From NCBI GenBank assembly GCA_951812955.1, contig OX638340.1:1280001-1344000 (forward strand): a DNA stretch of 64,000 nucleotides, in the 5' to 3' direction. Origin of the DNA: an uncultured Gemmatimonadota bacterium. GTDB lineage: Bacteria; JAAXHH01. Both the position numbers and the translations under genes were made by a program. Below, piece by piece: positions 1,530 to 45,862 of the stretch (position 1 is its first letter; each line of letters starts with the position of its first letter). The notes under the pieces are model-generated. The model had not been told where the DNA came from. It saw only the letters and a program-made list of their open reading frames with translations, and did no database searches.

Positions 1530-2306
1530 ATGCTAAAGGCCGAGATAGTCGAAGCGGTTGATATCGAGCGCGCCGCCGCCATCTTCCACCGGGACGGATT
1601 CGTCTGCGTAAGCGACCCCATGGACGAGAAACAGTTCGCCCTGAACCGCTCGGGCGCCGAACGTGTTATGCAGGAGCAGGAAGCCGAATTCGGGCGTGAA
1701 AAAATGAACCGGGGGTTCGCGCGTCAATCTTTCGGAAGTCAGTTGCACAACTGGGAGTGGTGCATCCTGATCGACTTGCCGACAATACTGCCGATATTAG
1801 ATACGATCTGGAGTAGCGACGACTATACCTGCACCGGCGCCGGGGGCGACTATTCCCTGCCTGGCGCGAAGATCCAGCACCTGCACTCCGATCGGAAAGA
1901 GGACATTTTCAATGATCCCCAGGGGCGGGTCAGCCTCCGGGACGTCCCGGCGCCCTTTATCGTAATCAACTTCACCATGGTGGATTTCACCGTGGAAAAC
2001 GGCGCCATCCGGTTCATTCCCGGCACCCATCGATCCCATGCGCCGATCCCTTCACTCGAAGAGGAACCGGAATGGATGCGCACCAACCACCTGTGCGCGC
2101 CGGCGAACACGGCCATCATCCGCGACGTGCGCTGCTGGCACGGGGGCACGGCGAACAACTCGGACATGAAACGGCCGATGACAAGCGTGGGATTCCATGC
2201 GCCGTGGCACCGCGCAGTCGAGGAGAAAACCTTGCCGAGGGAGCACTATAATCGGCTGTCTGCGCGGGCCCAGCGGCTGTGCCGGCATATCGTGGAGGCG
2301 GCATAG
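1530..2306 (+). CDS. Phytanoyl-CoA dioxygenase (PhyH) family protein; tandem paralog of the preceding gene.
   Basis: 258 aa ORF with the conserved PhyH-like HxD...H arrangement (IQHLHSD...GTHRSH). SD-like sequence upstream. Confidence 0.7.
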   Translation: MLKAEIVEAVDIERAAAIFHRDGFVCVSDPMDEKQFALNRSGAERVMQEQEAEFGREKMNRGFARQSFGSQLHNWEWCILIDLPTILPILDTIWSSDDYTCTGAGGDYSLPGAKIQHLHSDRKEDIFNDPQGRVSLRDVPAPFIVINFTMVDFTVENGAIRFIPGTHRSHAPIPSLEEEPEWMRTNHLCAPANTAIIRDVRCWHGGTANNSDMKRPMTSVGFHAPWHRAVEEKTLPREHYNRLSARAQRLCRHIVEAA

Positions 2307-2402
2307 GCTGTCCTCCGGGCTCATTCAATTGACTCGGTATCCTCTGTAGGGTGTAGTAACACGCTACCGACAGAAGAATTGAATCTGGATGTCAAGATAA
2401 TG

Positions 2403-2431
2403 TTGACAATATGCACACATTGTGTGATAAT
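2403..2431 (+). promoter_or_regulatory. Sigma70-like promoter TTGACA-17 nt-GATAAT ending 6 nt before the brnT ATG (leaderless or near-leaderless). A perfect 6-1-6 palindrome CACACA-T-TGTGTG sits between -35 and -10 and is a likely antitoxin operator.
   Basis: Direct sequence match to -35/-10 consensus with 17-bp spacing. Palindrome overlaps the spacer, as is typical for TA autoregulation. Confidence 0.4.
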
Positions 2432-2437
2432 TGACGT

Positions 2438-2722
2438 ATGGACATCGACTTCGACTGGAGCACCGAAAAGAATCGGCAGCTCATCGAGCAGCGGGAAATC
2501 TCGTTTGAGCGCGTTGTCGTTGCCATAGAGCAAGGCGGCTTGGTGGACGTGCTTGAACATCCAAACAAGGATGACTACCCGGGACAGTTGATCTACGCCG
2601 TGGAAATCGACCAGTACATACACCTCGTGCCTTTCGTGACGCAGAGCGATGGCACTCGCTTTCTGAAGCCGATCATTCCCAGCCGGAAGGCCACGAGAGA
2701 TTACAGGAGGAGGACATTGTGA
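2438..2722 (+). CDS. brnT: BrnT-family (DUF497) type II toxin, ribonuclease.
   Basis: 94 aa with a BrnT/DUF497-like sequence. 4-bp overlap (ATGA) with the downstream antitoxin gene. Confidence 0.75.
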   Translation: MDIDFDWSTEKNRQLIEQREISFERVVVAIEQGGLVDVLEHPNKDDYPGQLIYAVEIDQYIHLVPFVTQSDGTRFLKPIIPSRKATRDYRRRTL

Positions 2723-2994
2723 GTAAGGAATTGAGCGCTGAAGAACGCGACGTGCTCGAACGATTCGAGCGGGACGAGTTACGCTCCGCCGCTGACGCCG
2801 AACACGAGGCCGAGTTGGCCAGGCAGGCGGCTCGCAATACGTTCAACAAGACCAAGCGAGTGAATCTCCGGGTGACCGAACGCGACTTCAATCTCGCGCA
2901 CGCGAGAGCCAGGGAAGAGGGGATACCCTATCAGACGCTGCTGTCCAGCGTCATCCACAAGTACCTGTCAGGTCGCCTTACAGAGAAGAAGTAG
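2719..2994 (+). CDS. brnA: BrnA-family antitoxin (CopG/RHH-like).
   Basis: 91 aa with a BrnA-like C-terminal region (YQTLLSSVIHKYL). Translationally coupled to brnT. Confidence 0.7.
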   Translation: MSKELSAEERDVLERFERDELRSAADAEHEAELARQAARNTFNKTKRVNLRVTERDFNLAHARAREEGIPYQTLLSSVIHKYLSGRLTEKK

Positions 2995-3225
2995 GCCGAA
3001 TAAACTGCCTTCGCCTCCACTAATTTAGTAGTAATTAGTATTATATTGGTAGTGAGGAACTGGTATTCCTTGTATCACGTGAAAATCTACAATGAGAATA
3101 CCCAAGACACCTCCCGATTTCGCTGACCTGATCACTTTCTGGTCGACAAGAACGGCAACCAATTCAGTTATGATCTGGTAGACCCTATCCCCAGTTTCTT
3201 ACACGCGAAGAGTTGCCAGGGATAA

Positions 3226-3357
3226 AGGGTCATAAGTCAGACAGCCCGTACGGATCTGCTGGAGCTTTACGAGCGCGGACTCTTCAGCAAGCAGAAGATA
3301 GGCAGGAAGTGGGTTTTCGATGCACCGGAAGATTTGGAGGAGAGGCTGGCTGGTTAA
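3226..3357 (+). pseudogene. Fragment (C-terminal ~40 aa) of an HTH_17/excisionase-family DNA-binding protein with no start codon; a relic.
   Basis: In-frame translation ..DLLELYERGLFSKQKIGRKWVFDAPEDLEERLAG* resembles the C-terminal recognition-helix/wing of excisionase-family HTH proteins (KIGRxWxF). Preceded by a stop, with no ATG/GTG. Lies in a lower-GC 0.5 kb non-coding stretch. Confidence 0.3.
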
Positions 3358-3514
3358 CCAGGCTAGTCCTTTGCCACCCCTGGTCGACACTCGAAGCAGA
3401 CATCCCGAAGTAAAAATCCGATGATGGACAGATTTGCCTCTGTCTCCATCGCCGCACCGTAATCCTTAAATCCATCCAATCACATCAGCCGGCTTCAAAT
3501 CTCAGACTCGCTAC

Positions 3515-4360
3515 CTACCGCTCCCACGTCCTCTTCTTGTCATCCGCGCAGGAGATTGTCAACGCGGGACCCAGTTTGTCGATGCTCAAGTGCAGGTGAT
3601 CGCCGTCCTGGACCGGGCTGAGGGCGTAGTGGTGCGTGCCCGTGGAGACGACGTCGCCGGGTTCGAGGGTGACAACGGCCGTCACTTCGGCGAGGAGTTC
3701 GGGGATGTGCCGCGCCATTTCGCCGGTGGAGAAATCGTGCTTGAGGTTGTCGTTGATCCACATCTTCGCGGGCAGGTCGTTGGCGTCGCCCACCTCGTCG
3801 GCCGTGACCAGCGCGGGCCCCATGGGACCGAAGGTGTGCCAGCTCTTGCCCAGAAAGAAGCCGCCGGGCAGTCCGCGGGCCGAGACGTCGATGAACTGGG
3901 TGTAGCCGAAGATGTGGTCTAGGGCCTCGTCCGCGCTGAGCTTGCTGGCGCGCTTGCCGATGACGATGGCGAGTTCGGGCTCGAAGTGGAAGACCGAAGC
4001 ATCGGTGTCGGGCAGTTCCACTACCGCGTTCTGGCCCATGACGGAGGTGTTGGATTTCAGAAATGCGTTGAAGGTTTCCTTGGTCGGGTGATCCGGTTCG
4101 ATGTAGTTCCCCGCCAGGCAGAGCAGTTGGCCGGGACGGGGGACCGGTGCCCTCAGACTGACCGAGGACAGAGGCGTACCGGACTGCCCCTGCGCGGCGT
4201 CGGCGATGCTTGGGCCGTAGGAATCCCAACCGCTGATTACCGCATCCAACTGCGCCTGGGGGCTGGATGCGCCGATACCCGCTACGGCGTCCGAAACGTC
4301 TTTGATCGTGTCATGCTCGATTACGCCCAGGGTATAGTCGTTGTAGTATGCCAGTTTCAC
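3515..4360 (-). CDS. Fumarylacetoacetate hydrolase (FAH) family protein (2-keto-4-pentenoate hydratase/2-oxohepta-3-ene-1,7-dioate hydratase-like).
   Basis: 281 aa with FAH-fold features (FEPELAIVIGK, GDVVSTGT). Confidence 0.75.
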   Translation of the reverse strand: MKLAYYNDYTLGVIEHDTIKDVSDAVAGIGASSPQAQLDAVISGWDSYGPSIADAAQGQSGTPLSSVSLRAPVPRPGQLLCLAGNYIEPDHPTKETFNAFLKSNTSVMGQNAVVELPDTDASVFHFEPELAIVIGKRASKLSADEALDHIFGYTQFIDVSARGLPGGFFLGKSWHTFGPMGPALVTADEVGDANDLPAKMWINDNLKHDFSTGEMARHIPELLAEVTAVVTLEPGDVVSTGTHHYALSPVQDGDHLHLSIDKLGPALTISCADDKKRTWER

Positions 4361-4545: not shown

Positions 4546-4638
4546 GACCTGGATGCCCACCTCAGTTTGACCTGGATGCCCACCTCAGCTTGACCTGCAT
4601 GCCCATCTCAATCCTGCCTGCATACCCATCTCAGAACG
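4546..4638. repeat. Four degenerate tandem copies of a 23-bp unit (gacctggatgcccacctcagYtt) spanning the stop codon of the TonB receptor gene.
   Basis: Read directly: units at 4546, 4569, 4592 and 4616. The stop TGA (minus strand) at 4631-4633 lies in the last unit. Confidence 0.7.
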
Positions 4639-7792: not shown

Positions 7793-7915
7793 GGCTGGTT
7801 ATGTCCCGGATCGATAAATCGTTGCACAATATCACGAATGTCGAATATAATACCCCACAAGCCTGAAAACGACACGGAACTTCGATGCGCTTTCGTAAAA
7901 TGGCAAATCGGTGCC

Positions 7916-8023
7916 GGTCACACAGAGCCTGGCCGCCTGTCACACAGAACCTGGCCGCCGGTCACGCAGAGCCCGGCTTCATGTCATGTACAGCCGACCT
8001 CATGTCACGTATAGCCCGACCTC
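7916..8023. repeat. Five degenerate tandem copies of a ~22-bp unit (Rgtcacacagagcctggccgcc) in the divergent intergenic region between the TonB receptor and uxuA.
   Basis: Read directly: units start near 7916, 7938, 7960, 7981 and 8002. Confidence 0.65.
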
Positions 8024-24756: not shown

Positions 24757-24871
24757 CGGGTAGCGCGTTGCGGCGAGGCGTCGACAAACTCAGTCCGGGG
24801 TGGCGCGTTGCGATGAGGCGTCGAAAAACTCAGTACGGGGTGGCGCGGTGCGATGAGGCGTCGATTTCCGG
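24757..24871. repeat. ~3 tandem copies of a 40-bp unit (cggggtggcgcgttgcgatgaggcgtcgaaaaactcagt).
   Basis: Read directly in the intergenic region; units start near 24757, 24796 and 24836. Confidence 0.7.
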
Positions 24872-34464: not shown

Positions 34465-36402
34465 TCAATAACCGCTGTTCCCTAACCTGACACCGATGTA
34501 GCCGGTCATGCCCACGGTTCCGTATCCCAGGATTTCCTCGTACTCCGCATTGAGCAGATTGTCGATCCTTCCGAATAACTGGATGTTCGGTGTGACCTTC
34601 CAATTGGCGGCCACATTCACGATCCCGTAGCCATCCAGCGTTACCGGTGTGGCGGGCCAGGTCGAGAAGTCGTTGTCCCTTCGCTCCCCCGAAAAACGGA
34701 AACTCAGGTTCAGATCTACGCCCTGCCGTACTCGCTGATCAAGGACGATCCCGCCGCTGTGCCTCGGCCGTCTCAATAACTGCTCATCCGACTCATGGTC
34801 CTTCGAATCGGTCAAAGTATAGTAGGCACGCAGGGAAGTTCCCGCGATTCCCACATACCGTCCGGTCAACTCCAACCCCTTGCTTGTGGCCTTGAACACG
34901 TTCTTGTAACTGGATGTTTCGCTGTCCCACCCGACCATATTGTCGAAGGTATTGTCGAAATAGGTCACGCCGGCCACCAGCTTCTGATCGGCCAGGTACT
35001 GCTCCAGCCCCGCTTCCCAGCTCTTGCTGGTCCCGGCCTGGAGCGTGGAATCACCGAAGGAAGAATGCAGTTGAAACAGTGACGGCGCCTTGTAACCCGT
35101 ACCGTAGGCGCCTTTGATCCTGATTCCCGACGCTTCGAAGTACGCGTTTGGCGCGATGCTGTAGGTGACTTTAGAACCGTACCGGCTGTGATGATCGGCT
35201 CGCACGCCAAGGGTTGCAAACAGCGTATTGCCATACTGCAGCAACTCCTGCAGATAAGCACCGGTCATCCTTGCGGATCGGCGATCGAACTTGCTCGGGA
35301 ATCGGCCCCTTGATTCTGATTCTCCCTGTTCCGTTTCGGTTTCGGCGCCGAATACGAGCGTATTCCCGCCAGACAGCATCAGCGTGTTCTGCCAGTCTAT
35401 TTTGTGCAACCGCGCGTAGAACGTGGAGTTCGAAGCCGTTTCCTGGTTCTCGTCCACCGGATTGTCGTCTTCCCTGCTGTGATCGACGAGGCTATATCCC
35501 AGGGTCTGCTTCCATCGCTGCGACCACAATTCGAGGGTGGCCGAGGGACGGACAAACAGTTGCCTGGAGGAGTTTACCCGATTGGGATCGTCCCCATCGG
35601 GACCGGCTCCATTATCGATATCGGCCCGGCCATCCGTGAAACGAAACGTGAGATCGACCGAAGCATTCGCGGCGGGCGTCGCCCCGAAGCGTCCACCCAC
35701 CGTGGTGTTTCGATAGCCGTCTTCTTCCTGGTTCCCCAGGGCATTCGCTGAAATACCCCGAGCGTTCAGGAAGGAGCCGTCGATCGCATACTGGTAACTG
35801 TCCGTTCCGCCATTCAATCCCGCCCGGCTTCGAAACGTACCCAGGGCGCCGCCCTCGAAGGATGCCCCGATCTTTGGCTTACCCTCACCGCGCTTCGTAA
35901 TGATGTTCACGACCCCCGCGATGGCGTCCGACCCGTACAGTGTACTCTGGGACCCGTACAGCACCTCGATACGTTCTACCTGGTCGACGGTCAGATGCGC
36001 CGGGCTGTAGCCGCGACCCGGAGACATGGCATCGTTGACCTCGATTCCATCGATCAGAAACAGGGTGTAGGACGATTCGGCACCGCGAAGAAAAACAGAC
36101 GCGTTATTACCCGTGCCGCCAGCCTGTGCCATGCTCAAACCGCCCACGTCGCGCAGCACGCCGGCGACCGTGTTCTGGCTGCTGCGTTCGATATCGTCGG
36201 CGGTGATTACGGCGATCGAGCTCGACACCTGCCGCAAGGGTGTTTCGATTTTCGCAGCGGTTACGACAACGGCATCCAGAATGTATCTGGGTTCCTGGTC
36301 CACCGGGTCCTCCGGGTCCGGTGAATTCTGCGCAAATCCTGGCGCTGCGGACAGCAGGTAAAAACAGAGCACGGCTTTAATCGCATGTGGTATGTGTTTC
36401 AT
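34465..36402 (-). CDS. btuB: TonB-dependent receptor, BtuB-like (vitamin B12/cobalamin outer-membrane transporter).
   Basis: Signal peptide; plug domain with TonB box-like DAVVVTA; barrel ending in aromatic ..GY. GGGAGG SD 6 nt upstream of the ATG at 36402. Preceded by a cobalamin riboswitch. Confidence 0.8.
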   Translation of the reverse strand: MKHIPHAIKAVLCFYLLSAAPGFAQNSPDPEDPVDQEPRYILDAVVVTAAKIETPLRQVSSSIAVITADDIERSSQNTVAGVLRDVGGLSMAQAGGTGNNASVFLRGAESSYTLFLIDGIEVNDAMSPGRGYSPAHLTVDQVERIEVLYGSQSTLYGSDAIAGVVNIITKRGEGKPKIGASFEGGALGTFRSRAGLNGGTDSYQYAIDGSFLNARGISANALGNQEEDGYRNTTVGGRFGATPAANASVDLTFRFTDGRADIDNGAGPDGDDPNRVNSSRQLFVRPSATLELWSQRWKQTLGYSLVDHSREDDNPVDENQETASNSTFYARLHKIDWQNTLMLSGGNTLVFGAETETEQGESESRGRFPSKFDRRSARMTGAYLQELLQYGNTLFATLGVRADHHSRYGSKVTYSIAPNAYFEASGIRIKGAYGTGYKAPSLFQLHSSFGDSTLQAGTSKSWEAGLEQYLADQKLVAGVTYFDNTFDNMVGWDSETSSYKNVFKATSKGLELTGRYVGIAGTSLRAYYTLTDSKDHESDEQLLRRPRHSGGIVLDQRVRQGVDLNLSFRFSGERRDNDFSTWPATPVTLDGYGIVNVAANWKVTPNIQLFGRIDNLLNAEYEEILGYGTVGMTGYIGVRLGNSGY

Positions 36403-36491
36403 CTTGCCTCCCGATATGGTAGATGGTTCGGTGCCTGCAAATTGACGACGCGCATTGGGGTCCATCAGGTCGTTGATTCAGATCGATCTCC

Positions 36492-36535: not shown

Positions 36536-36679
36536 ATGCCGTTTGTCATCCTCGGAATACGGCCACTTGCAGATTACGCCCCAATGAATATACTACGGGA
36601 CAAAAACGCCTGGCGGCCGTACTTACGATTATCCATGTACACCGGACGACTTCAGTCCACGGAAGTCCCGATGAAAACT

Positions 36680-36850
36680 ATGGGCAGGTCGGTCTTCTGG
36701 CTTCCGGATCGATCTACTCGCCGCGCCTTCCCATTCCCGGAGGAACAGTGGCTCGAGCACTATGGCTCTTGATGCGGTTTTCGTCCCCGGTCACAGCGAC
36801 GGGTCCGCGACGGATTCGCACCGTCTTCCCAACTTCTCACCTGCTCCTGT
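36680..36850 (-). promoter_or_regulatory. Cobalamin (adenosylcobalamin) riboswitch aptamer.
   Basis: Minus-strand sequence GGUGAGAAGUUGGGAAGACGGUGCGAAUCCGUCGCGGACCCGUCGCUGUGACCGGGG...GAGCCACUGUUCCUCCGGGAAUGGGAAGG...GAUCCGGAAGCCAGAAGACCGACCUGCC matches the conserved Cbl riboswitch core (GGUG..AGGGAA..CGGUGnnAAUCC..GCnGnCCCGC.ACUGU; B12 box GCCACUG..GGGAAGG; ..GCCAG.AGACC.GCC). Confidence 0.85.
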
Positions 36851-36851
36851 C

Positions 36852-36880
36852 AAGATAGTACCGTTTCGGGGTGAGATCAA
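36852..36880 (-). promoter_or_regulatory. Candidate promoter for the riboswitch/btuB transcript (TTGATC-17-TATCTT).
   Basis: Weak -35/-10 match with correct spacing; TSS would fall at the aptamer 5' end. Confidence 0.25.
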
Positions 36881-37006
36881 TCGAAAACTGCGGATTACCT
36901 TAAGGTCGCAGCAAAACTGCTACGTGAGCTACTGGGAAGTGTAATCCTTGATGCGAGGGAGGATTGGTCCGGAGGCGTTCTGGAATCCGCATACAAGCGT
37001 CAATAA

Positions 37007-37762
37007 TTATGACACTTCGATAAGTATCCTGCAATGATCGCTGGGACCCCATTCTTCCGGCTTGTTCAGTGCCGTTGTTCTGATGGAATTCTTCATGCTT
37101 CGTGAAGCAAACACGTAATCCAGCTGCCTGGTGGCCGTCGCAGGTTTTTGACTGGTATGATAGTATGTGGGACCCTGGGGGCCTATCATGGGCAGACCAA
37201 TTGATGACATCCTGTCGAATACTGCTTTCTTGCGGGTCTTCCAGTATTCGTTGCTTCCATCGCCATCCATCACAGTTGTATCTCCAGCCGCGATCATCCT
37301 GAAACTGTTCTTCCTGCCTATAAGCAGCGAGATGTCCGATATGATGCGATGGATCGACGTGTCTACTAGATCACGGCTTTTAAGGCCCGATGATGGATGA
37401 TATGCCTCATACTGGGGACAGAATGACACTACATGAATCGGCCAGTCCCGGAATTTGCCTTCAAGAGGGGTCACAACGGCCGCGGACAGGCATCCCGGAT
37501 GACTGGACTGTATATCATCCAGATAACACACCTTAACCCTGTCGGATGTTTTTACTATAGCACATCTGGATCGTGCTTTGCCCCGACTATCTGGTCTAAG
37601 TGGGTCCTTTTTGTAGTATGGCGCAGGATCCACTTCAATTCTGCCAGCCACATCCTTTGGCGGTTTATAGCCTTCCTGGAGCAGGACAATATCTACGTCC
37701 AGATCAGGCAAGGATCTCCATGCCGCCCTGCGATGCCCGATATTCCAGCAGACCAGTTTCAT
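37007..37762 (-). CDS. Endonuclease/exonuclease/phosphatase (EEP) family protein, within a low-GC islet.
   Basis: N-terminal MKLVCWNIG..DIVLLQE and C-terminal GPSDHCRILIEV motifs typical of EEP (ExoIII/DNase I/sphingomyelinase) fold. Local GC ~47% versus ~65% flanking. Confidence 0.65.
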   Translation of the reverse strand: MKLVCWNIGHRRAAWRSLPDLDVDIVLLQEGYKPPKDVAGRIEVDPAPYYKKDPLRPDSRGKARSRCAIVKTSDRVKVCYLDDIQSSHPGCLSAAVVTPLEGKFRDWPIHVVSFCPQYEAYHPSSGLKSRDLVDTSIHRIISDISLLIGRKNSFRMIAAGDTTVMDGDGSNEYWKTRKKAVFDRMSSIGLPMIGPQGPTYYHTSQKPATATRQLDYVFASRSMKNSIRTTALNKPEEWGPSDHCRILIEVS

Positions 37763-37798
37763 CCAGATCTCCAAACGGTCCATCTGAAGATCGCAGCA

Positions 37799-38170
37799 CT
37801 ATGGCTTGTCGTCAAAGTACGGAGAGCAGTTTTGTTTCCAGGCCAGCCAGGTCCGACTGCCGTCGGAAGCCACAATGACGTGATCTTTGAACTTTTCCGG
37901 TATATTGGTGATTTTGCCTTGAGGGCCTTCGCCCGTTACGAACAGATCGTCCAGCGTCGTCCTTTCATGAAACAACCTGCTCTTTCCTTCGTGCACGGCG
38001 TCCTTTATTTCTGAAATCACCTGTCTGAATTCTTCTTCTATATCATCGGTTATTGTTTCCCTTTCCGACATTGTCCTTGTCTCCTTGTAGGCTTCCCACA
38101 ACCGCTTGACATGTTTGGCATACCTAAAATACTTCGCAAGCTCCAGAAGCAGTTCGAGGTATTCGGTCAT
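37799..38170 (-). CDS. Hypothetical protein (123 aa) immediately upstream of the EEP gene and in the same reading frame, separated by one TAG.
   Basis: ORF with ATG at 38170 (TTG at 38179 also possible). No recognisable domain. Same low-GC composition as the EEP gene. Confidence 0.4.
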   Translation of the reverse strand: MTEYLELLLELAKYFRYAKHVKRLWEAYKETRTMSERETITDDIEEEFRQVISEIKDAVHEGKSRLFHERTTLDDLFVTGEGPQGKITNIPEKFKDHVIVASDGSRTWLAWKQNCSPYFDDKP

Positions 38171-38285
38171 GACCTGCAATGCCTGATTTAAAGGATACCC
38201 AATGCCGCCCTGAATTCAAAGGTATTCCCGATAAACATCCAAACAGCACCCTTGTACCTGGCATAGCCTCAGTTTTCTACCACAA

Positions 38286-39941
38286 TCACCACCTGGCGTT
38301 TAACTGCAAAATCCATCGTGTTTCGACGAGGGGAACCTTGAGTTGATCGTAGCGGGTCTGACGTGTCCGCGTATAACGCACCACGGTGGAAACGCCCGAT
38401 CCGACCGGTCCGTACAGCAGGATAACCCACCTATCGCGGCGGTTGGATCGAAATAGGGAGGTCGATTCCTCCGGCTCGGGTAACCCGGCCAACGTGTATT
38501 CCCACTGGGCGGACAGGCTGACACGGTCCCTGGACCGGTATCGCATGTACAATCGCAGATCGTGCGCGGGATTCAAACCGGACTGGCCGCGTCGCTCGTA
38601 GCGGGCCCGCCACTGGACCCGGGCGGGCAGCCGCCAGGCCATCTGACCTCGCCAGGATTCCAGCAGAACCGATCCATCAATTCTATGCGCATCCATCTCA
38701 CGGCGCCACACGCCCGAGAGTACGAGGCCGCCGTTCATTCTTCGGCGAAATCGGAAGGTGCTGCGCCGGTACAACTCCAAGTTGGTCAACCGGGGTTCAA
38801 CGCTCAGTTGCAGCGTGGTCCGGCGGTCCGGCCGCCAGCGCAGGAGCAGGCTCTGCCACGTCCGTTCGGACTTCTCGATGAACCGGGCATTCGGCTGACG
38901 GTGGATAGTCAGTCCCCCTTCCACGCGCTCCATGCTCCAGATCATGCCCCCCTGAACGGTCTGGTATCCCTCATCGTCGATGGCCATTTCACCGAACAGA
39001 TTCGTACCGCCGAAGAGCAAGTCCAGGTCCACGCCAGCACGTACGCGACCTTCCGTGTGAATGGCCGAGATACCGATCAGTCCACTGTTTCGCTTCCAGT
39101 CCAGGCGGCCCCCAGGTTCCCATTTTCCCGATGCGGTCCGTGAGAGGATCCCCGTCAGGCTATAACCTGGGCGGGCAATCCGCAGCGCCACGCCACGACG
39201 GGCGCCGGATACGTAGGTCGTTCTTACGGGTCTCAGTCCCCGGACACGGCGTTTCACGGACGCACTTAGACTGGCCGTCGAAGGCCGGATCGAATGACTG
39301 CGCCACACCAGTCCCTGGCCGAAATCCACTTCGTAGTATCCCAGGATCAACATGCGGGATGCATCCGCCTGACCCAGTTCCAGGTATCCCGACCGCCACC
39401 GGGTTTCACCGTCTCGATCCCGGCGTTCCCCCCGTCCGCCCAGTCTGAACGACCGTCCGAGTTCAATGTCCCCCTGCAGACCGAGGATGCCGTTTCCCGT
39501 CGCTTCCGGACGGTCGGTGCGGCTTCGCGACAGGCGCCCGCGACCCGCGGTTTTAAAGGTGCGGACACCGTCCGCCCGAATAAAGGGACTGATTCGGGAT
39601 ACAAGAGCCTCCGTGAAACCTGGAATTCGAACGAGTTCCCCCACGCTGGTGAAGGGGCCGAGCTTTTCACGCCAGGTGACGACGGCTCCGGCGAGCGCCG
39701 GCGTGATCCACGGCAGTTGTTCCAGCTCGGTCCGGCTGGCCCGGTTGATATCGAGCGGGTCGCGCCGCAAGGAGACCAGCAGCGCGATGTCCTCCGGATC
39801 GATGTCTGCTGCTTCCCGGTCGATCAGTGCATCAATGGAGTAGTCTGGTTCCTGCCCCGACCGTTCTTCAGGAGAGAAAATCATCATTGCTAGGTACACG
39901 GAGACCAGAATTCGCCATGCGTGGTACATGAACCGGCTCAT
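38286..39941 (-). CDS. ComEA-like helix-hairpin-helix domain fused to a large C-terminal putative outer-membrane beta-barrel.
   Basis: Residues ~60-125 (DINRASRTELEQLPWITPALAGAVVTWREKLGPFTSVGELVRIPGFTEALVSRISPFI) match the ComEA HhH DNA-binding domain. Remaining ~420 aa have alternating amphipathic beta-strand character rich in R/W/Y and end ..LQLNARW (terminal aromatic). Confidence 0.55.
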   Translation of the reverse strand: MSRFMYHAWRILVSVYLAMMIFSPEERSGQEPDYSIDALIDREAADIDPEDIALLVSLRRDPLDINRASRTELEQLPWITPALAGAVVTWREKLGPFTSVGELVRIPGFTEALVSRISPFIRADGVRTFKTAGRGRLSRSRTDRPEATGNGILGLQGDIELGRSFRLGGRGERRDRDGETRWRSGYLELGQADASRMLILGYYEVDFGQGLVWRSHSIRPSTASLSASVKRRVRGLRPVRTTYVSGARRGVALRIARPGYSLTGILSRTASGKWEPGGRLDWKRNSGLIGISAIHTEGRVRAGVDLDLLFGGTNLFGEMAIDDEGYQTVQGGMIWSMERVEGGLTIHRQPNARFIEKSERTWQSLLLRWRPDRRTTLQLSVEPRLTNLELYRRSTFRFRRRMNGGLVLSGVWRREMDAHRIDGSVLLESWRGQMAWRLPARVQWRARYERRGQSGLNPAHDLRLYMRYRSRDRVSLSAQWEYTLAGLPEPEESTSLFRSNRRDRWVILLYGPVGSGVSTVVRYTRTRQTRYDQLKVPLVETRWILQLNARW

Positions 39942-40920: not shown

Positions 40921-40994
40921 GCCCCAGTAGCTCAGTTGGACAGAGCATCGGACTTCTAATCCGAGGGTCGCAGGTTCGAATCCTGCCTGGGGTA
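40921..40994 (+). tRNA. tRNA-Arg (anticodon TCT).
   Basis: Manually folded cloverleaf: acceptor GCCCCAG/CTGGGGT, D-arm GCTC-AGTTGGACA-GAGC, anticodon stem TCGGA/TCCGA with loop CTTCTAA, T-arm GCAGG-TTCGAAT-CCTGC, discriminator A. G1:U72 wobble noted. Confidence 0.8.
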
Positions 40995-41054
40995 TGGGAA
41001 CCGGGCTTTCAGCGTAGTCCGCGCAGTGGTTGCGCCGGTTCCCGGTTCCCCCGT

Positions 41055-41128
41055 GCGTCCGTAGCTCAGCTGGATAGAGCAACTGACTTCGGATCAGTAG
41101 GTCGGGGGTTCGAATCCCTCCGGGCGTA
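41055..41128 (+). tRNA. tRNA-Arg (anticodon TCG).
   Basis: Cloverleaf: acceptor GCGTCCG/CGGGCGT, D-arm GCTC-AGCTGGATA-GAGC, anticodon stem ACTGA/TCAGT with loop CTTCGGA, T-arm GGGGG-TTCGAAT-CCCTC. G1:U72 wobble again. Confidence 0.75.
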
Positions 41129-41194
41129 TACATTTCATCGACATCCCCATCTGTTCATCGTTTCCAAGGCATCGATTGCCGGGAAGGAACGACC

Positions 41195-44600: not shown

Positions 44601-45773
44601 ATGACTCCGCACATCGGAATCGGCATTATCGGAATGGGCTGGATGGGCATGGTCCATGGCCGCGCCTACCGCCAGGTCCGGCAGCGATTCCACGAAAGCG
44701 AACTCCTTCCCGATCTGGTCATATGCGCCGACGATGTGGCAAACCGATGCGGGCAGGCCATGGACATGCTGGGATTCACGCGTACTACAACGGACTGGCG
44801 CAAGGTCATCGACGACCCCGAGGTGTCGGTTGTCAACATCACCGCGCCCAATTTACTTCACCTGGAAATGGTCCGCGCCGCCGCCGCCGCGGGCAAGCAT
44901 ATCTTCTGCGAGAAGCCCGTGGGCCGTTCCCCCGGCGAAACGGACGAAATCGCCCGGGCGGCCGCCGATGCCGGCGTGCTGACCTGGGTCGGATACAACT
45001 ACCGGTGGGCGCCGCTCGTGCAGCATACGCGCAGTCTCGTCGCAGACGGCAAGCTGGGGGACATCACCCATTACCGCGGCCGGTTCTTCGCGGGGTACGC
45101 GAGCCATCCGGACGGTGTGCTGTCGTGGCGATTTCAACGGGAACATGCGGGTAGCGGAGCCCTGGGCGACCTCATGTCCCACGTTGCCGACATGGCCCAC
45201 ATGCTCGCGGGACCCATCAGACGCGTAGTCGGCCAGCAGGCGCTGATCATCGAAGACCGGCCCGTCGCCCCAGCCGGCGAAGGCACCCATTTTTCCGTAG
45301 GGACCGGAGGCAATCGGGAACCGGTGACCAACGAAGACTACGCCGGGGCGCTGGTGGAATTCGAGAACGGCGCGCGGGGAACCTTCGAAGTCTGCCGCGT
45401 GATCCAGGGAACGAAATGCCAGATGGCCTTCGAGATCCACGGCACAAAAGGCGCGGTCCGGTGGGATTTCGAACGAATGAACGAACTTCAACTCTATTCC
45501 GTCGATGGCCTGCACGACGGTTTTGTAACGCTTCAGAGCGGTCCGGCCTATCCCGGGCATGCGCACTTCAACCCCGGGCCGGCCGTGGGACTGGGATACG
45601 ACGACCTAAAGGCGATCGAGACCTTCCACTTCCTGCAGTCCATCGCGGCGGGCAGACAGGGTGAACCGGGTTTCAGCGAAGCGCTGGCCGTCGCGCGGGT
45701 GCTTTCCGCGATCGAACGCTCCTGGTCGTCCGACCGGTGGGAAACGATCGACAGTTCCTGCCTTGATCGGTAG
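44601..45773 (+). CDS. Gfo/Idh/MocA family oxidoreductase.
   Basis: Rossmann [19 protein letters not shown] and EKP motif (HIFCEKPV). Confidence 0.8.
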
Positions 45774-45862
45774 ATTCGGCCGTTGATCGATAGAGACAGG
45801 CCTATGATCGACAGTTCCGACCTTGATCGGCAGAACCGGCCGTTGATCGATCGAGACAGGCC
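45746..45862. repeat. Two tandem ~60-bp units; the first copy includes the last 28 nt and stop codon of the Gfo/Idh/MocA gene.
   Basis: gatcgacagttcctgccttgatcggtagattcggccgttgatcgatagagacaggcc / gatcgacagttccgaccttgatcggcagaaccggccgttgatcgatcgagacaggcc, read directly. ~88% identical. Confidence 0.75.

Follow-up and report, generated by a model that had tools for sequence, protein, structure and literature searches.

Enzymes of the ExoIII/APE1 group of apurinic/apyrimidinic (AP) endonucleases, represented by E. coli XthA, B. subtilis ExoA, Mth212 and human APE1, are single-domain cytoplasmic proteins of 250-270 amino acids (aa). They resemble in size and build a 251-aa protein encoded in a GC-poor patch (positions 36960-38285) of a 64-kb stretch of contig OX638340.1, from an uncultured Gemmatimonadota bacterium; this whole stretch is called the window below. 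The APE-type domains of non-long-terminal-repeat (non-LTR) retrotransposons (TRAS1, R1Bm, LINE-1) have the compact form of the fold in common with this protein, which belongs to the endonuclease/exonuclease/phosphatase (EEP) type. A second gene, for a small protein, lies just upstream on the same strand, and type II toxin-antitoxin (TA) and nuclease-immunity pairs likewise encode a small acidic protein just upstream of a basic nuclease-like one. The original prediction, made from the sequence alone, had described the patch as a recently acquired islet and had considered for its two genes a toxin/immunity or nuclease/regulator module of a defense island, a fusion disrupted by a nonsense codon, or chance placement in one reading frame.

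The reading that we favor, with moderate confidence, takes the patch for an accessory segment of long standing, located where the genome is variable and prone to deletion and occupied by an independent orphan gene and a solo ExoIII/APE-like EEP enzyme. This spot lies just downstream of two outer-membrane genes, PorV-like and HHH, in Gemmatimonadota of a clade of which at least some members are sponge-associated. The EEP protein would be a compact, basic, cytoplasmic single-domain enzyme of the ExoIII/APE1/retrotransposon-endonuclease branch, in which, by analogy, an Asn/Glu pair would hold Mg2+ and an Asp-His pair would activate water so that a phosphodiester bond is cleaved; the likeliest substrate would be DNA, with nicking, AP-site processing or 3'-end processing as candidate reactions. 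Neither the small gene nor the EEP gene depends on the other for its retention.

The EEP protein and its family

Pfam PF03372 (Exo_endo_phos) matches the protein at 21.7 bits, under its gathering cut-off of 24.5 (some relatives carry a precomputed PF03372 match), Exo_endo_phos_2 matches weakly (E = 0.005), and the NCBIfam xth models TIGR00633 and TIGR00195, whose cut-offs are 99 and 183 bits, score 14.8 and 13.3 in the C-terminal 40 residues alone. Comparison of the sequence with PDB gave marginal ExoIII matches only. The Pfam match being sub-threshold, the assignment of the fold is based on an AlphaFold2 model built from 43 homologues, for which the predicted local distance difference test (pLDDT) is 91.6 and the predicted template modeling score (pTM) is 0.90. 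The model has the four-layer alpha/beta sandwich common to ExoIII and DNase I and places the protein in the EEP superfamily, as the original prediction had proposed. In a fold comparison of this model the highest figures were obtained with the endonuclease domains of TRAS1 (21.5) and R1Bm (21.3), followed by E. coli ExoIII (20.5), an archaeal AP endonuclease (20.1), the LINE-1 endonuclease (19.9), APE2 (19.7) and ExoA (19.5); Tdp2 and nocturnin (both 17.2), DNase1L3 (17.1), sphingomyelinases (16.4-16.5), CdtB (15.7) and inositol 5-phosphatases (about 13) came lower. Judged from the model, the folds nearest to that of the subfamily are those of ExoIII/APE1 and of non-LTR retrotransposon endonuclease domains.

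Apart from GDxN, the sequence motifs are conserved across the family. The 43-sequence alignment has N7, E30, D215 and H243 in every sequence and D161 and D242 in at least 90%, and among the best 120 family members WN, LLQE, QLD(Y/F)V and SDHC(R/K) are near-universal. The ExoIII chains 5j8n and 5cfe align residue for residue with the family at WN, (L)QE, GDL-, LDY and SDHC: in the family profile WN faces WN, LLQE faces (C/V)LQE, GDLT faces GDLN, QLDYVF faces RLDYVF and SDHC faces SDHC. The protein has an isoelectric point (pI) of 9.26 and neither a signal peptide nor a transmembrane (TM) segment. By analogy with ExoIII and APE1 it probably cleaves phosphodiester bonds of nucleic acids in the cytoplasm, in a Mg-dependent manner.

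This likeness to described enzymes has clear bounds. Identity to the ExoIII/APE1 proteins is just 15-20%, with NCBIfam xth scores of 13-17 bits against cut-offs of 99-183, and where the canonical motif is GDxN the window protein reads GDTT, Thr or Ser replacing the Asn in most of the subfamily. The EEP gene also differs from a core repair gene in being patchy and accessory, in having several paralogues per genome and in occurring as a pseudogene in close relatives. The retrotransposon domains are 14-18% identical to the EEP protein, which is bacterial and free-standing, with no reverse-transcriptase partner or retroelement context in about 70 EEP loci. Only the C-terminal SDH motif is detectably common to the family and either the uncharacterized bacterial structural-genomics EEPs (3g6s, 3l1w, 3mpr, 3teb, 4ruw) or Pseudomonas Crc. 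For Crc a regulatory role is described in which it binds RNA and is not catalytic, whereas the EEP family retains the catalytic residues other than the GDxN Asn.

In a subgroup of the close EEP homologues an insertion of 24 aa lies after the first helix and before LLQE (L003 6001-6828 and L094 2908-3735; loci used for comparison are numbered with an L). In the insertion-bearing proteins P0013, P0015, P0017 and P0019 it looks like a tandem duplication (AAWRSLPDLGVD ... EAWKSSPDTGVD).

The EEP fold is compatible with chemistries other than nucleic-acid cleavage, and the protein could instead be a lipid or small-molecule phosphatase or phosphodiesterase, resembling sphingomyelinases, inositol phosphatases or nocturnin and possibly serving a role in sponge symbiosis. 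The replacement of the GDxN Asn in most members and the frequency of the family in sponge-symbiont bins of many phyla would suit such an activity. Against it, the sequence-level matches are solely to ExoIII proteins, no signal peptide or secretion signal was found, the protein is basic as expected of nucleic-acid binders, and members also occur in metagenome-assembled genomes (MAGs) from groundwater and bog. We regard this alternative as unlikely but deserving of some weight.

The family is large: at E <= 0.001 it comprises at least 1144 homologue clusters, and at least 570 loci were found in one-genome-per-species bacterial genomes, in at least 10 phyla and typically at 40-50% identity. Its hosts include Gemmatimonadota, Latescibacterota, Chloroflexota (many of them Dehalococcoidia), Acidimicrobiia, Gamma- and Alphaproteobacteria, and further Acidobacteria, Binatia, Spirochaetaceae, Trueperaceae and Schekmanbacteria. 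Sponge-symbiont bins of many phyla supply many members, and groundwater or bog MAGs a few; the SB06xx bins are symbionts of the sponge Ircinia ramosa (PMC11706023) and the APA bins of Aplysina aerophoba (PMC7883664). A literature search found no paper on this EEP subfamily, which is horizontally scattered and, with at least 1144 clusters and at least 570 loci, has no characterized member. The biochemistry of the subfamily and its frequency in sponge symbionts are the features of this locus likeliest to reward interest.

The family-wide comparison points to an enzyme that needs no partner. All-against-all clustering of 1131 open reading frames (ORFs) from 85 loci found no EEP neighbor common to loci beyond clade-level synteny, and in about 70 loci from at least 10 phyla no neighbor cluster recurred in more than a few. 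Pfam annotation of 109 immediate neighbors, from about 60 loci outside the syntenic clade, returned DUF1697 four times, RecA twice and assorted metabolic enzymes, DUF1697 being the sole repeated neighbor there. Outside the Gemmatimonadota clade the GC content of the EEP gene is mostly equal to that of its host (mean difference -0.015). The EEP gene is a solo gene family-wide.

The four DUF1697 genes lie about 30-45 nucleotides (nt) downstream of the EEP gene on the same strand, in L005, L010, L012 and L016, which belong to a Gemmatimonadota/Latescibacterota subgroup of roughly 50% identity. L005 is also the sole EEP locus in a mobile or TA-rich setting, with an IS1595 transposase, a methyltransferase/HNH gene and an MNT/HepT pair.

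The small gene and its independence from the EEP gene

Both genes of the patch are genuine coding genes, the ratio of nonsynonymous to synonymous divergence (omega) being 0.12-0.24 for the EEP gene and 0.13-0.28 for the core of the small gene. In the first 33 codons of the small gene omega rises to 0.57, and the invariant columns of the protein alignment start only at M34. The actual product may be a 90-aa form rather than the 123-aa one: it would begin at ATG 38071, which is preceded by AAGGAG (AAGGAG or AGGAGG stands before Met34 in the window, L001 and L003), and gene callers picked the 90-aa product in L001, L003 and L004.

The small protein had been described as lacking a recognizable domain, and searches of Pfam, NCBIfam, PHROGs and PADLOC indeed gave no significant match. 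Its AlphaFold2 model, two long helices and a small sheet, is unreliable (pLDDT 60, pTM 0.28); the core has a pI of 4.84, with no TM segment or signal peptide. Homologues form 33 clusters, all in the host Gemmatimonadota clade, and a scan of JGI metagenomes added four loci. When 1.84 billion representatives were searched with a profile, the matches were limited to pieces of the small-protein family itself and to giant proteins rich in repeats, and nothing else credible emerged. A local profile search of six-frame translations of L001-L085 and the window located the small protein at the syntenic site only, with nothing beside the EEP genes of L007-L085 except a broken copy in the syntenic L011. 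Wherever found, with or without an EEP gene, the small gene stands directly downstream of the HHH gene. It is a clade-restricted orphan under purifying selection, and as such a clean case of a constrained orphan gene limited to one clade. We regard it as a lineage-specific modulator at most; it may act as a facultative modulator of the EEP protein, or it may be tied to the HHH and PorV-like genes.

The two genes are not obligately linked, because each occurs intact without the other. In L002 the EEP gene is intact and constrained (omega 0.12 versus the window) beside a remnant of 12 small-gene codons, and in L097/L098 and L099 the small gene is intact and the EEP gene absent. Homologous pairs do co-occur within the clade, and it is the obligate nature of the link between them that failed to hold up.

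These observations bear directly on a toxin/immunity, TA or nuclease-inhibitor module, in which the acidic small protein would neutralize a harmful basic EEP nuclease. Such a module would accord with the adjacency of the two genes on one strand in 12 loci (36 nt apart in the window), with the contrast between the pI of 4.84 of the small core and that of 9.26 of the EEP protein, with purifying selection on both genes and with their joint pseudogenization in L011. The pairs on which it is modeled are nonetheless different from this one, in that here each gene persists alone and the partner is missing from the rest of the EEP family: more than 1100 EEP clusters compare with 33 clusters of the small protein, whose profile is empty beside the EEP genes of L007-L085 (which are outside the syntenic clade save L009 and L011) and in the 1.84 billion representatives. 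No homology to any TA or immunity family was detected, and matches to TA and defense families all stayed below threshold. We therefore hold a toxin/inhibitor module to be rather unlikely, and the nuclease/regulator form of it that had been envisaged as part of a defense island fares no better, given a clade-only partner, separable genes, empty PADLOC searches and heterogeneous housekeeping flanks.

Age of the GC-poor patch and variability of the spot

The patch is the strongest compositional outlier of the window. Its GC content is 49.3% against 61.2% across the window, the minimum among non-overlapping windows of equal size (z = -5.7), and it has the largest tetranucleotide deviation in the 64 kb. 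GC at third codon positions is 0.54 in the EEP gene and 0.60 in the small gene, compared with 0.69-0.72 in three neighboring genes. The stop codon of the upstream 551-aa gene (38286) marks where the fall starts, and its other end is close to the cobalamin riboswitch. The drop that had been predicted is thus real, and so is its location between the riboswitch and TonB-receptor gene on one side and the PorV-like/HHH outer-membrane pair on the other; its size, given as ~65% to ~47%, is about 61% to 49%.

The same comparison does not bear out the recent horizontal acquisition that had been read from this composition. The gene order PorV-like, HHH, small, EEP, (arginase, on the other strand), riboswitch/TonB receptor recurs in L001, L003/L004, L006, L094-96 and L100; L002 keeps the PorV-like, HHH, EEP and TonB-receptor genes in order with the small gene replaced, and L011 is syntenic with both genes of the patch broken. 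A dip in GC to 0.46-0.53 is likewise present in L001-L004. The patch is kept at the site in relatives down to about 70% nucleotide identity in the flanks, and synonymous divergence (dS) from the window amounts to 0.39-0.68 in the patch and 0.59-1.25 in flanking genes. Relatives with such dS in the flanks have the patch in synteny and with equally low GC; it is old and no recent arrival in the source genome. A sharp drop in GC alone is no proof of recent transfer, since here a GC-poor patch has held its place through substantial divergence. A foreign, accessory origin of the patch is plausible because of its deviant composition, its variable presence in relatives and the occurrence of the EEP family across at least 10 phyla.

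Within the clade the spot is variable. In L087 a large part of the interior of the small gene is deleted and the EEP gene is absent; in L088/L089, which also lack the EEP gene, the final 16 codons of the small gene come after an unrelated coiled-coil gene of 90 aa; L086 has neither gene; and the small-gene remnant of L002 likewise follows a coiled-coil gene. The remnants show that sites without the genes are losses. The closest species-representative genome (L011, OY762445.1, 93-97% nucleotide identity) has a 2.45-kb insertion (L011 3395-5851) that splits the small gene and carries an IS1595-family transposase and a split gene with N6_N4 DNA methyltransferase and Mrr-like nuclease domains; both the small gene and the EEP gene are frameshifted there, the latter near codon 125. 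The spot is being eroded in several lineages by deletion, replacement and insertion of insertion sequences (IS).

The coiled-coil genes that take the place of the small gene after the HHH gene are unrelated to it and encode 84-90 aa (L002 5646-5918, L088 6833-7105, L086 6703-6957), with heptad repeats such as LEQKVDG and weak matches to DUF7310. A set similar to the L011 insertion, with IS1595 and methyltransferase/HNH genes, adjoins the distant EEP homologue of L005.

Several observations weigh against an old segment with a solo repair-like enzyme and an independent orphan. The patch of L001 agrees with that of the window at 85-87% of nucleotides, and the flanking HHH and TonB-receptor genes at only about 70-72% (dS 0.39 in the patch and about 1.2 in the flanks), a contrast that other relatives do not have; it hints that members of the clade later exchanged the patch, which may help to explain the lasting low GC. 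That low GC after long residence is not accounted for by simple vertical inheritance. Several genomes have two or more EEP paralogues, which is unusual for a plain repair enzyme. Of 120 members only 13% have Asn at the last position of GDxN, about 63% having Thr there and 13% Ser, and the replacement could alter chemistry or substrate. An acidic small protein beside a basic nuclease-like one, finally, is what an inhibitor pair would look like, and a facultative functional link between them is possible. In a further reading, which we likewise rate as quite doubtful, the EEP gene would stand for an unrecognized, horizontally exchanged family of single-gene nucleases whose active site is modified (GDxT/S for GDxN), which is common among sponge-symbiont genomes of many phyla and which is directed against foreign DNA or active in host interaction, with the acidic orphan as its newly evolved inhibitor or regulator in this clade. 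Paralogue pairs occur at distant sites of one chromosome, L015/L032 (OY762464.1) and L008/L034 (OZ241920.1), with about 45% identity to each other's query match, and tandem copies in L038 and L049.

Antiphage defense cargo, of one or two genes recently acquired into a defense island, would account for the deviant composition, for a family that hops between phyla with several paralogues per genome, for the L005 homologue amid its IS1595 transposase, methyltransferase/HNH gene and MNT/HepT pair, and for the many members from sponge-symbiont bins, of which the SB06xx and APA series are verified as sponge-derived. Sponge symbionts have been reported to be rich in defense genes, which counts in favor of such cargo. 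Nevertheless, PADLOC-DB v2 returned no family even at E <= 1 for any of four proteins, the two encoded in the patch and two distant homologues of the EEP protein. The EEP family had no match in 50,697 phage records and is nearly absent from plasmids, with four weak matches (24% identity) on Sinorhizobium megaplasmids in the plasmid collection. The repeated families among the 109 flanking proteins of about 60 loci are DUF1697, RecA and metabolic enzymes; no defense family is among the 25 commonest, no formal enrichment test having been made. Neither an integrase nor flanking repeats were found, and the patch itself is old, not recent. We consider recent defense cargo improbable.

The in-frame TAG and the surroundings of the patch

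The two minus-strand ORFs share one frame and are parted by a TAG, exactly as had been described, and the junction reads ..YFDDKP-TAG-CCDLQMDRLEIWMKL.. (Table 1). The gap between them is wider than the five codons that had been counted. The EEP protein almost certainly starts at MKLVCW and not at MDRLEIW, because all close homologues, of 251 aa like the window protein, begin there (MKL(I/V)CWNI) and because a GGAG lies 7 nt before its ATG; a matching purine-rich site occupies the same place in three relatives, and a GGAG-like ribosome-binding site 6-7 nt before the EEP ATG is conserved in related loci. The upstream in-frame ATG is not conserved, being TTG in L011. With the start at 37762 the gap therefore consists of the stop and 36 nt.

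Comparison of 12 loci that carry both genes bears on the meaning of the stop. The small gene ends in TAG in seven of them, in TAA in four and in TGA in one; the spacer measures 36 nt in five loci, 35 nt, and hence out of frame, in another five and 45 nt in two, one of which (L001) has an additional in-frame stop. No fused protein exists among the 120 EEP homologues listed or the 33 clusters of the small protein. Since stop codon, spacer length and frame all vary across loci, the shared frame and single TAG are coincidence, at the one-in-three chance expectation, which had itself been among the explanations offered. The two genes are separate, each translated from its own ribosome-binding site. 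A nonsense-disrupted fusion, or programmed amber readthrough giving a joint small-EEP protein, would draw on the common frame in the window, on the lack of a further stop in its 36-nt spacer and on the 7 of 12 related loci that are in frame, but at the comparative level it is already refuted by the five loci out of frame, the second stop in L001, the interchange of TAG, TAA and TGA, the unconserved spacer peptide, the want of fused homologues, the MKL start of close EEP proteins and the conserved GGAG-like site before that start, and its probability is close to negligible. An in-frame stop between neighboring ORFs needs comparative support before any meaning is attached to it.

Table 1. Features of the patch and its surroundings, in window coordinates
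Feature	Position	Strand	Remarks
TonB-dependent receptor gene under riboswitch control	34465-36465		Plug and TonB barrel domains
Terminator-like hairpin of the riboswitch	36537-36504		terminator scan
Cobalamin riboswitch	36670-36859	-	Rfam RF00174, 94.8 bits; lower boundary, outside the patch
Probable remnant of an arginase-family gene (last 18 codons)	36905-36958	+	tblastn with the L003 arginase
EEP-fold gene, 251 aa	37007-37762	-	start MKLVCW (ATG 37762)
Spacer, 36 nt	37763-37798	-	GGAG ribosome-binding site; non-conserved in-frame ATG (MDRLEIW)
Small orphan gene, 123 aa from ATG 38170	37799-38170	-	stop TAG 37799-37801
Gene for a 551-aa protein with an N-terminal ComEA-like HHH_3 domain	38286-39941	-	Pfam HHH_3, 6.4e-14; upper boundary of the patch
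Two tRNA-Arg genes	40921-41129		2.6 kb from the patch, two other genes between

Upstream of the patch are encoded a PorV/PorQ-like protein of 273 aa and the HHH_3-domain protein. On the other side, between the EEP gene and the riboswitch, L002, L003, L006 and L094 have an intact arginase gene on the opposite strand. The corresponding segment of the window matches aa 257-274 of the L003 arginase at 78% identity (E = 0.05), in the expected place and orientation, and is a probable deletion remnant of that gene.

The tRNA genes next to which the patch had been placed are too far off to adjoin it, and the flanking direct repeats for which a search had been suggested are lacking: only chance-level repeats (11-15 nt) flank the patch, and no integrase is among the genes called around it in the syntenic loci. 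An 11-nt imperfect inverted pair (36883/38267) was rejected as chance, being one of seven such pairs in 2 kb. The riboswitch was the sole Rfam match even with the threshold set permissively, and a promoter and terminator scan stayed at the shuffled expectation except for the riboswitch terminator.

In relatives this side of the locus also varies. The TonB-dependent receptor of L001 (7273-8759) is called as two ORFs, Plug and then barrel, and is a possible pseudogene, and in L099 and L086 the receptor and the riboswitch are both missing.

Elsewhere in the window, two overlapping small ORFs at 2438-2994(+), of 94 and 91 aa with a 4-nt overlap, resemble a BrnT toxin and a CopG-type antitoxin, with Pfam E-values of 1e-4 and 6e-4 that are both under the gathering thresholds. 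The segment is the second strongest tetranucleotide outlier of the window, and 2306-3515 is devoid of long ORFs. Several arrays of short tandem repeats, each of 2-5 copies with a period of 20-60 nt, are scattered through the window, at 24758-24864, 45746-45862, 4546-4634 and 7913-8023.

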